From the NCBI GenBank assembly GCA_965248445.1, contig CBDFJG010000004.1, positions 768,001 to 832,000 on the forward strand: 64,000 nt of DNA. Direction: 5' to 3'. The number at the start of each line of letters is the position of its first letter. Position 1 is the first letter of the stretch. This stretch comes from Planctomycetota bacterium (GTDB lineage Bacteria; Planctomycetota; JAJSAM01; JAJVHW01). Made by a program: the position numbers and the translations under genes. A model generated the notes under the pieces. It did not search any database, was not told the DNA's origin, and saw only the letters and a program-made list of their open reading frames with translations. Shown in pieces: positions 4,138 through 7,856 of the stretch.

Positions 4138-4141
<4 letters not shown>
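2651..4141 (+). CDS. gatA: Asp-tRNA(Asn)/Glu-tRNA(Gln) amidotransferase subunit A
   Basis: Amidase signature [46 protein letters not shown]. Confidence 0.98.
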
Positions 4142-5595
<1,454 letters not shown>

Positions 5596-5608
5596 CGACG
5601 CGCCAAAC

Positions 5609-5667
5609 AGTCCAGGATCCTGGACTATTCTTGATTCCCAGACACTAACCGTCCAGGATCCGAGACG
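5609..5667. promoter_or_regulatory. Two putative enhancer (UAS) sites for a sigma54 activator, GTC-N10-GAC
   Basis: Perfect 18-bp palindrome AGTCCAGGATCCTGGACT (5609-5626) and imperfect copy CGTCCAGGATCCGAGACG (5650-5667), 41 bp apart, upstream of a -24/-12 promoter. Confidence 0.7.
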
Positions 5668-5697
5668 ATTCTCGACGCCTTCGAGCCTGAGCAGGTC

Positions 5698-5714
5698 TTG
5701 GCACGGTCTTCGCT
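5698..5714 (+). promoter_or_regulatory. Sigma54 (-24/-12) promoter
   Basis: TTGGCACGGTCTTCGCT versus consensus YTGGCACG-N4-TTGCW; GG(5700-5701)-N10-GC(5712-5713). Confidence 0.8.
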
Positions 5715-5724
5715 TTACCCAGGA

Positions 5725-5910
5725 CGGGTGTGGCAAGCACCCACTTGAAATCAAGAAACGAGACACCGGGCGGAGCGGGAAGTTCCACCTCTCTCACGGC
5801 CCGCGGGCCGACCTCACCCTCCCCCATCAGGTTCCGCGAAGTCGTTGCGCAAGCGGGGCAAACGCCTGTCCGGTTGACAAGAGGGCGCGGAGGCTACGGC
5901 TTCCGCGCCC
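5725..5910 (+). ncRNA. Putative sigma54-dependent small RNA (~185 nt)
   Basis: Starts at the predicted +1 with hairpin GGGTGT-GGCAA-GCACCC; further hairpins and CU-rich linkers; ends in a 12-bp stem with cUACGg loop; no convincing CDS downstream of the promoter. Confidence 0.6.
5883..5910 (+). terminator. Strong hairpin / probable 3' end of the sRNA
   Basis: GGGCGCGGAGGC-TACG-GCTTCCGCGCCC; the G-U wobble and UNCG tetraloop only work on the + strand; no long U-tract. Confidence 0.55.
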
Positions 5911-5962
5911 GGCTTGATTCACAGTCACTTGGTTCACGGCGCAGGGGTTCCCAGCGCGCGGG

Positions 5963-7429
5963 TCAGCCGGTGACGCGGGCTCCGTCCGCCACGCTGTCCT
6001 CCCGGAACTGCTCGGGGTTCACACCGAGTTTCCGCAGCTTCGCGTAGAGCGATGCGCGCCCGATGCCCGCCAGGCGCGCCGCGCGTGTGCAGTTCCCTCC
6101 GGCCCTCTCGAGCAGGCGCCCGAGATAGGCGCGGTCGAACGCCTCGCGCGCGCCCCGCAACTGGAGCGTGTACACGTCGTCGGAGAGGCCGGCGCCGTTG
6201 CCGGCAGCCGGACTCCGGATGAGCCTCTCGTCGAGAGCGTTCTCGCGCGCCCGCGATTGGTCCATCACGCTCAGAGCGTCTGCGACGTGGGCGTACGAGA
6301 TCGCACCACCGCCCGAGAGGATCGATGCGCGGGTCAGGACATTGCGGAGCTCACGGACGTTGCCCGGCCAGTCATGCGAGATGAGCGCCGCGAGCGCTGG
6401 CGCGTCGATGCGCGGGCGCCCGCCCGGCGCGCGGCCGAGGAAGTGGTCCACGAGCAGCGGAATGTCGCCCTCGCGGTCGCGCAACGGCGGCACCTCGATC
6501 GGGAACGTCGCAAGCCGGTAGTAGAGGTCGCCTCGGAAGCCGCCCTTCTGGACCTCATCCGAGAGGTCGCGATTCGTGGCTGCCAGCACGCGCACGTCGA
6601 CCTTGATCGGCTCCGTGCCCCCGACGCGGACGATCTCGTGCTCCTGCAGCACGCGCAGCAGCATCGCCTGCACGCTGGGGGGCGCCTCGCCGATCTCGTC
6701 CAGAAACAGCGTGCCGCCGGACGCGACCTCGAAGTGACCCACCCGCGCTTGCGTCGCTCCGGTGAACGCACCCTGCTCGTGACCGAACAACTCGCTGGCG
6801 AGAAGCGTCTCGTGGAAGGCCGCGCAGTTCACGATCTGCATTCGGTTCGCGGCGCGCCCGCTGCGCGCGTGCAACGCGCGTGCACAGAGTTCCTTCCCGG
6901 TGCCGCTCTCGCCGTACACGAGGATCGTGACGTCCTGGGGCGCGACCTGCTCCACGACGGCGTACAACCGGCGCATCGCGCGACTCCCGCCGACCATCTC
7001 TTCGTAGCGGTCTTCGCCACCGGCGGCGGAGCCCGGCGCATCCGCTTCACCGCGGGACAACTGACGCAGTGTGCGCTCGACGACGAGTTCGAGTTCCTCG
7101 ATGCGCAGGCCCTCGTTGCCTGTCTTCTGCACGAAGTCGACGGCGCCGGCGCGCATCGCAGCCACGATCGAGGAGGTGGACGCCGCCTCGGACATCACGA
7201 CGACCGGCGTGTCCGGATCGATCTTCCGGATGCGGCGCAGCAACTCGAGCCCGGAGACTCCCGGCAGCCAGAGATCCGAGAGCACGAGGTCGTACTCGTT
7301 GCGGTCGTACGCCTCCATCGCGCCGCGGGCGTCCGTGCGGATCGTGGCGTCGTGGCCCCAGCGCTCCGCGGCCGCGCGCAGAGTGGCACAGACGAGGGGG
7401 TCGTCGTCGACGATGAGAAGGCGGGGCAC
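5963..7429 (-). CDS. Sigma54-dependent response regulator (NtrC/AtoC family: REC + AAA+ + Fis-type HTH)
   Basis: LLIVDDD...VLSDLWLPG receiver; GESGTGKE; GAFTGA; LFLDEIGE; WPGNVREL; C-terminal AARLAGIGRASLYAKL. Confidence 0.96.
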   Translation of the reverse strand: MPRLLIVDDDPLVCATLRAAAERWGHDATIRTDARGAMEAYDRNEYDLVLSDLWLPGVSGLELLRRIRKIDPDTPVVVMSEAASTSSIVAAMRAGAVDFVQKTGNEGLRIEELELVVERTLRQLSRGEADAPGSAAGGEDRYEEMVGGSRAMRRLYAVVEQVAPQDVTILVYGESGTGKELCARALHARSGRAANRMQIVNCAAFHETLLASELFGHEQGAFTGATQARVGHFEVASGGTLFLDEIGEAPPSVQAMLLRVLQEHEIVRVGGTEPIKVDVRVLAATNRDLSDEVQKGGFRGDLYYRLATFPIEVPPLRDREGDIPLLVDHFLGRAPGGRPRIDAPALAALISHDWPGNVRELRNVLTRASILSGGGAISYAHVADALSVMDQSRARENALDERLIRSPAAGNGAGLSDDVYTLQLRGAREAFDRAYLGRLLERAGGNCTRAARLAGIGRASLYAKLRKLGVNPEQFREDSVADGARVTG

Positions 7430-7517: not shown

Positions 7518-7856
7518 ATGTCTGAACCGGTCTTCGATCGATCTGCGCTGGAGCGCTCAGCCGCCGGTGACGAGGCCCTGGCATGCGAGTTGACGAGCCT
7601 GTTCTTGACCGAGGCCGAGGAATCGGCAGCACGGCTAGGGGCTGCTCTCGAGCCTATCGACCGCGGCGAGCTGCGTGCCACGGCGCACCGACTCCGCGGG
7701 TCGGCCGGGATCGTGGGCGCGAAGCGCTTGCGCGCTGCGTGCGCGGAACTCGAGACTCACATCGACGACTCTTCGGAGGAGATCGGCAGGCTCGTGGCGA
7801 GTTTGCTCGCCGCCTCCGACGATGCGTGCAGAGCCATGGCCCCGGAGGGCTCCTGA
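7518..7856 (+). CDS. Stand-alone Hpt (histidine phosphotransfer) domain protein
   Basis: FDRSALERSAAGDEALACELTSLFL...AHRLRGSAGIVGA..L...CAELE; ATG at 7518. Confidence 0.9.
   Translation: MSEPVFDRSALERSAAGDEALACELTSLFLTEAEESAARLGAALEPIDRGELRATAHRLRGSAGIVGAKRLRAACAELETHIDDSSEEIGRLVASLLAASDDACRAMAPEGS

Follow-up and report, generated by a model that had tools for sequence, protein, structure and literature searches.

Small RNA genes that stand beside the gene of their own sigma-54 activator are already known from other bacteria, and the design considered here is not new in kind. In the sections of the papers cited here, the GlmY/GlrR (QseF) system of Enterobacteriaceae has a sigma-54 sRNA promoter with multiple activator sites, for which GlrR follows the consensus TGTC-N10-GACA and a DNA-bending factor is required (PMC3045617). 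Both Pxr/Nla19 of myxobacteria (PMC5568312) and Dv_sRNA2/DVU0679 of Desulfovibrio (PMC3333781) are described with a sigma-54 sRNA gene just past the 3' end of its response-regulator gene, and LuxU-LuxO-Qrr of Vibrionaceae holds an Hpt, a sigma-54 activator and an sRNA in one locus (PMC10162802). A different kind of precedent is described for RsaE (PMC2790875) and LhrC (PMC4132741), which carry unpaired UCCC or CU-rich tracts in more than one copy, act independently of Hfq and belong to sets of several such RNAs per genome, with LhrC under the control of a two-component system (PMC4132741).

The locus described here resembles the first group in its wiring, and RsaE and LhrC in its likely seed. 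It lies in a 64,000-nucleotide stretch of DNA from an uncultured planctomycete, which we call the window, and its features are collected in Table 1 together with those of related loci elsewhere in the genome. The candidate is a probable small regulatory RNA gene, an orphan known from one genome.

Table 1. Features of the candidate locus and of related loci in the same genome (G000); coordinates without a contig are window positions
Feature	Coordinates	Strand	Basis or remark
gatB, last gene of gatCAB	4138..5595	+	upstream flank of gap
Gap between gatB and activator gene	367 bp		holds candidate RNA; activator gene convergent with RNA (tail-to-tail)
Enhancer site 1, perfect GTCC-N8-GGAC palindrome	5610..5625	.	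motif search
IHF-like site core AATCAA, weak	5631..5636	-	TTR of WATCAR-N4-TTR unmatched
Enhancer site 2, GTCC-N8-AGAC	5651..5666	.	motif search
GAGCCTG element	5683..5689	+	9 bp before -24 box
Sigma-54 -24/-12 box TGGCACG-N4-TCGC	5699..5714	+	spacing correct
Candidate small RNA, ~190 nt	5725..5915	+	inferred from promoter and terminal hairpin
5' hairpins, two	5726-5742 and 5744-5755	+	folding ensemble
CU tract 1 CCACCTCTCTCA	5785..5796	+	partly paired, unpaired probability 0.1-0.98
CU tract 2 ACCTCACCCTCCCCCA, likely seed, contains UCCC	5811..5826	+	5815-5826 unpaired >0.9
Terminal 12-bp stem, cUACGg loop, probable terminator	5883..5910	+	fold; possibly serves - strand too
Sigma-54 activator gene (REC-AAA+-HTH, 488 aa)	5963..7429	-	convergent with RNA
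Stand-alone Hpt protein gene (112 aa)	7518..7856	+	divergent from activator gene
Family B RNA, ~130 nt	G000:C3:212085-212247	-	L258; homologues L260, L274, L256, L255, L332
Family C RNA	G000:C2:608009-608165	+	L296; G004 L333
Family D, sigma-54 RNA or leader	G000:C4:1737028-1737260	+	L297; G007 L305; G001 L322
Candidate RNA F, between moaA-like gene and tRNA	G000:C3:1437925-1438196	-	L298

Genomic setting of the locus

The genome is 5.4 Mb in size, 69% GC and 92% complete. Its planctomycete context, which a first-pass annotation of the window had thought probable, is backed by database names, 2 of the 15 closest relatives of the activator being labelled as Planctomycetes proteins. The activator itself has its phospho-acceptor D52, K102, the Walker A and B motifs and GAFTGA all intact, and in the adjoining Hpt and activator genes the His and Asp residues are both intact; a Ser/Thr kinase-AAA-TPR gene follows downstream of the Hpt gene. 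The genome contains rpoN and two HU/IHF genes. A search of the 92% complete genome for Hfq gave no PF17209 match, with controls detected, and CsrA likewise gave no PF02599 match. Four runs of one sample carry the stretch unchanged, which adds no independent support since that sample may be the source of the stretch.

The first-pass annotation had also drawn a loose analogy with Vibrio LuxU-LuxO-Qrr. As wiring the analogy holds, whereas in its parts it does not: the regulator scores 308 bits against the LuxO cut-off of 800, no Qrr match was obtained, and Hfq, on which Qrr action depends, was not found. Nor does the activator qualify as GlrR, at 307 bits against a cut-off of 763.

The sigma-54 promoter and its upstream elements

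The sigma-54 promoter predicted ahead of the candidate RNA is well supported. The first-pass annotation had proposed a sigma-54-dependent RNA in a cascade from Hpt to response regulator; a promoter of this type does stand next to an Hpt gene and to the intact gene of a REC-AAA-HTH activator, with more elements than that annotation had listed. The support comes from the enhancer sites, the GAGCCTG element and the intact activator; the box pattern alone, with 6 matches in the window against 4.8 expected, is not above chance. From the usual spacing between box and start we take the +1 to lie at about 5724-5726, and no sigma-70 promoter match was found within 5400-6100.

The two enhancer sites are 41 bp apart (about four helical turns), are identical in their first 11 bases and both match the core GTC-N10-GAC, to which the activator would bind at each site. 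The pattern GTCC-N8-GGAC stands upstream of 6/84 intergenic sigma-54 boxes (5/83 when the present site is left out) vs 1/528 genic ones, where the division into intergenic and genic follows gene calls from our own codon model. Enhancer site 1 may double as a terminator for gatCAB, since a T-rich tail follows it. The weak IHF-like core between the two sites was compared with the consensus WATCAR-N4-TTR as quoted in PMC3045617. The related string AATCAAG occurs three times in the gap (5631-5637, 5750-5756 and 5914-5920), twice on the - strand and once on the +.

The GAGCCTG element appears to be a property of the family to which this genome belongs (f1). In its shorter form, GAGCCT, a motif chosen by eye from four of its six intergenic occurrences, it precedes 6/65 intergenic sigma-54 boxes in this genome and none of 392 genic ones. 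At 28 sites in seven relatives from the family, GAGCCTG stands 7-9, 16-21 or 26-30 bp (about 8, 18 and 29 bp) ahead of the box, a helical phasing (R 0.69 at a 10.5-bp period) reached by none of 20000 random draws, though several of these sites are orthologous and the sites are hence not independent; the phasing of the 10 sites in the genome itself is reached by 46 of 20000 draws. The combined count of GAGCCTG plus box in the seven family genomes exceeds its reversed-pattern control modestly (28 vs 20), and the same pattern gave none in three genomes of the sister family f2. The family f1 sites span loci L302-L322 and L328-L334. The genes behind these promoters, as read from their translations, include groEL-, clpC- and sigma-factor-like genes, in agreement with a survey of Planctomycetota that places chaperones and Clp proteases under sigma-54 (PMC12316311). 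The phased element offers a handle for calling sigma-54 promoters in this family.

The chance level of the box and the reading of enhancer site 1 as a terminator would also suit an account in which there is no functional RNA, the gap being the gatCAB 3' region with its terminators and a relic promoter left behind after the loss of its protein gene. Payload turnover of this kind can be seen at another locus of the family, where one promoter position serves an RNA candidate in two relatives but a protein gene here, and nothing in the gap is conserved across the genomes searched. A relic, however, would not be expected to retain an in-phase enhancer pair, a phased GAGCCTG element, a box, 5' hairpins at the predicted +1 and a terminal stem all undecayed, together with an intact activator gene, and we regard this account as improbable.

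Structure and orientation of the candidate RNA

All the strings quoted in the first-pass annotation were found where it had placed them, and the folds proposed for them fared unequally. The hairpin at the predicted +1 is firm, with pair probabilities of 0.98-0.99; a second hairpin behind it reaches 0.88-0.89, and the two together give z -2.8. Two internal hairpins found no support: the palindrome CGGCCCGCGGGCCG (5797-5810) pairs with a probability of 0.12, and the GCAA (GNRA)-looped hairpin near 5841-5860 with 0.23 at most. The RNA body (5725-5880) folds no better than its shuffles (z +0.18), and the whole candidate RNA gives z -1.62.

Orientation on the + strand, as first proposed, is carried by the stability of the terminal hairpin and by a sense-strand bias of such hairpins. 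The hairpin has z -6.6 and folds at -32.3 kcal/mol on the + strand vs -22.9 on the -, where its G-U pair, correctly said to fit the + strand, turns into A.C. Among stems of at least 10 bp with a cUNCGg loop that follow co-oriented genes in this genome, 6/6 are on the sense strand. U-poor tails are common in the genome: 2-4 U in 9 nt were counted for 33 of 52 sense hairpins, and the candidate's own hairpin has 4.

The CU tracts had been described as anti-Shine-Dalgarno-like. This stands for tract 2, which is accessible, costs 0.4 kcal/mol to open and resembles the C-rich 3' end of the genome's own 16S rRNA; tract 1 is partly paired. C-rich 14-nt windows (no G, at most one A, at least nine C) occur in 5 of 181 convergent gaps, the present gap among them.

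Two further explanations bear on the same features. Convergent transcription or read-through from the promoter might damp the activator mRNA in cis as a negative feedback, in which case the sequence of the RNA would matter little. Promoter and activator gene do face one another, with 53 nt from the hairpin end to the activator stop, and a U-poor tail, a body that lacks a folding signal and the absence of any homologue all fit such an arrangement. Yet a very stable + strand hairpin stands between the promoter and the activator gene, U-poor tails are normal here, and the two C-rich tracts, rare in convergent gaps as they are, would be left unexplained; we therefore hold action in cis to be unlikely.

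Alternatively, a small protein gene could account for the region, either of 60 aa (- strand, 5645-5827) or of 105 aa (+ strand, 5730-6047). When read on the - strand the C-rich tracts become G-rich, SD-like sequence, but these stretches sit within the 60-aa ORF and not ahead of its ATG, the database held no relative of the 60-aa product with a similar length, and the 105-aa ORF overlaps the activator gene. The first-pass annotation had named a conserved translated small ORF among the findings that would overturn an RNA; no credible ORF came to light, since both overlapping ORFs are non-coding by codon score (-0.23 and -0.29, where the 5th percentile of 511 predicted small genes is +0.007). A protein-coding explanation is thus highly improbable, and a regulatory RNA remains our preferred reading.

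Homologue searches and the history of the cassette

The RNA belongs to no known family, as had been surmised: there were 0 Rfam matches in the window, and the best chance scores, of 17 bits or less, were far below the gathering thresholds of GlmY/GlmZ, Qrr, CrcZ, RsaE, LhrC and other families. DNA searches found 0 homologues in 60 relatives and short matches alone in up to 400 genomes of the phylum (best E 1.7e-4), with none of the 29 best loci placing its match behind a sigma-54 box. A covariance model built from the single sequence of the 3' half, with up to 150 candidates scored in each of 17 genomes, gave no homologue, its best non-self hit (E 6e-4) being actually a tRNA with a similar GC hairpin behind it. 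A model of the promoter and 5' half, run on 150 genomes with up to 20 candidates each, gave none either; its 16 non-self hits (E 0.03-0.4) were not convincing. In a GTDB-wide search for the enhancer-plus-box pattern, none of 29 loci resembled the candidate RNA locus.

One likeness deserves separate mention. A sigma-54 RNA candidate of a relative (G002) matches the RNA's 3' half to a degree equalled by 4 of 2000 shuffles and is the best of 53 comparators; we do not accept it as homology, since it amounts to 13.7 bits and the counterpart in G003 lacks the common middle part.

Searches that started from the activator gave a similar picture. A metagenome scan yielded 80 loci (best identity 47%), 9 of them with a box and 0 with the RNA. 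No adjoining sigma-54 promoter was seen among the loci listed for activator relatives in family f24, the promoter pattern in 5 of 11 f24 genomes led to no RNA gene (4 of the 5 hits examined), and activator relatives 47-52% identical had no such promoter alongside in the loci examined. Across the order's 16 other genomes the best activator matches reach 42-49% identity, which is background level. The closest relatives come from metagenomes, with activators 54-56% and Hpt 68% identical, and we regard these as true orthologues. Their DNA lies outside the searches, and the genomes searched for RNA homologues include none of the same genus; the absence of homologues is for the former reason weak evidence either way.

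In G006 the kinase gene comes straight after gatB, and the 1.5 kb upstream of four further kinase orthologues shows no Hpt or activator, so that the RNA-activator-Hpt cassette seems restricted to one lineage, not otherwise sampled, which either gained it or kept it at the place between gatB and the gene of the Ser/Thr kinase. The gatB-kinase gap of G006 (L036) is filled, in place of the cassette, by a long inverted repeat with arms of about 35 bp.

Sister RNAs behind the same type of promoter

Further intergenic RNA candidates stand behind the same promoter type in this genome, and three of them are conserved. Family B is a new RNA family with better support than the candidate RNA itself. Found in 6 genomes, it folds into a multi-branched structure that includes an invariant CCCGGGACGGGGGCC hairpin, and it shows compensatory change in 7 of 23 pairs, a count matched by 0 of 500 shuffles, although the structure was derived from the same sequences that were used for the covariation count. 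It sits behind a permease-like gene in three loci translated, and the two loci tested gave no Rfam match. Family C, for which an Rfam search likewise returned no match, has a strong terminal hairpin and a CU loop of 20 nt that is identical in G000 and G004, members of two genera. Family D is conserved and highly structured and precedes a DEAD-box-like helicase gene in G000, G001 and G007.

For candidate F, a search of 5 relatives gave no counterpart. Its enhancer type, GTCCA-N7-RGAC, is common to the present RNA and a clpC-like gene, and on this ground the three may form one regulon. More CU-rich RNA candidates occur in G001-G005, among them a short one behind a sigma-54 promoter that faces an exonuclease III-like gene in G002 (L313, - strand) and G003 (L328, - strand); at the corresponding site of G000 (C2:388954-389879), the sigma-54 promoter drives a gene for a 220-aa protein. 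Elsewhere in the genome (C3:1610489, + strand) a sigma-54 box precedes an ORF of about 35 codons that is absent from the gene calls and whose product would have a hydrophobic C-terminus.

The conservation of the sister RNAs suggests that, in this family, a gap with a sigma-54 promoter is often the site of a genuine RNA, and the invariant loop of Family C that CU loops can be under selection. For the candidate locus, this is support by analogy, at the level of the class, indirect and not proof.

The sister RNAs also raise the possibility of a decoy or sponge, in which the RNA would pair with another sigma-54 RNA or bind a protein and would not block mRNAs. Candidate F, behind a promoter of the same enhancer type, contains a 10-nt perfect complement to tract 1 (G000:C3, ~1438.1 kb; net -6.5 kcal/mol), and GACAAGAG stands ahead of the terminator in both the candidate RNA and the Family B copy. 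Neither pairing with candidate F nor pairing with RNA D is significant, however: of 5186 intergenic segments, 7% equal the complementarity between tract 1 and candidate F, and for RNA D the match falls at the median. The genome yielded neither CsrA nor Hfq. The lack of a CsrA match argues against a sponge of the CsrB/Rsm type in particular. We consider a decoy role distinctly improbable, and return to the blocking of mRNAs.

Predicted mechanism and targets

Our main reading, to which we assign a probability of roughly 0.6, is that a trans-acting RNA of ~190 nt is activated by the convergent response regulator and blocks ribosome-binding sites in a chaperone-free manner. If so, a hybrid kinase would phosphorylate the stand-alone Hpt, from which the phosphate would move on to D52 of the activator. 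The activator would then occupy the sites at 5610 and 5651 and open the promoter at 5699-5714, perhaps with the help of a factor that acts on the phased GAGCCTG element. Transcription of the + strand would give an RNA with hairpins at its 5' end that terminates at the cUACGg stem, and its tract 5811-5826, accessible by computation, would cover the G-rich ribosome-binding sites of several mRNAs. Initiation would thus be blocked with neither Hfq nor CsrA taking part.

Several counts bear on this last step. SD sites are in use by the genome (41% vs 15%), and a 6-mer complement to tract 2 occurs in 544 of 4575 start regions, where shuffled tracts average 309 and control windows taken upstream give 263. 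For individual mRNAs, no target of tract 2 is significant across the 4575 start regions. The top match, with complementarity at 13 of 14 bases and a net energy of -23.5 kcal/mol, belongs to a beta-CASP ribonuclease (G000:C4:1558270), and another of the leading candidates lies at G000:C4:866140. We treat the top match as a lead only, since of 200 shuffled tracts 26 do equally well; the best target score of -28.5 compares with -28.2 in an upstream control window and is likewise not significant. Of 13 orthologues examined, 7 come from relatives in which the start is called, and none of these 7 has the extended site.

A more ambitious version of the model would have the family run a chaperone-free layer of several sigma-54 sRNAs whose promoters share a helically phased GAGCCTG element not described before, and the present RNA would be a recent Hpt-phosphorelay output repressing the beta-CASP ribonuclease. 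We think this version doubtful; if it were true, signalling would be tied to RNA turnover.

Comparison with known systems

Literature searches on the phylum, sigma-54 and small RNAs found no report of sigma-54 sRNAs in planctomycetes, and in a 2025 survey of sigma-54 regulons the terms 'sRNA' and 'small RNA' are absent from the main text (PMC12316311). If the candidate is real, then planctomycetes in which neither Hfq nor CsrA was detected join a sigma-54 enhancer switch of Gram-negative type to C-rich ribosome-site blocking of Firmicutes type.

Each of the described systems matches this locus in part. Both enhancer sites have the core GTC-N10-GAC in common with the GlrR consensus in the cited account, whereas the outer bases differ; GlmY is a protein decoy, while the candidate RNA has an anti-SD-like seed, gives no Rfam match to GlmY, and has an activator adjoined by an Hpt and not by a sensor kinase. 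The pxr promoter, in the part of its description drawn on here, lies within the 262 nt between regulator and RNA, whereas here the RNA is convergent and its promoter stands on the far side; neither Pxr nor Dv_sRNA2 has any sequence likeness to the candidate by Rfam. RsaE and LhrC, for their part, are Firmicutes RNAs with no sequence match to the candidate, whose promoter is of the enhancer-dependent sigma-54 type and whose pairing is predicted. The candidate RNA thus combines wiring like that of GlmY and Pxr with a seed like that of RsaE and LhrC, and is a member of none of these families.
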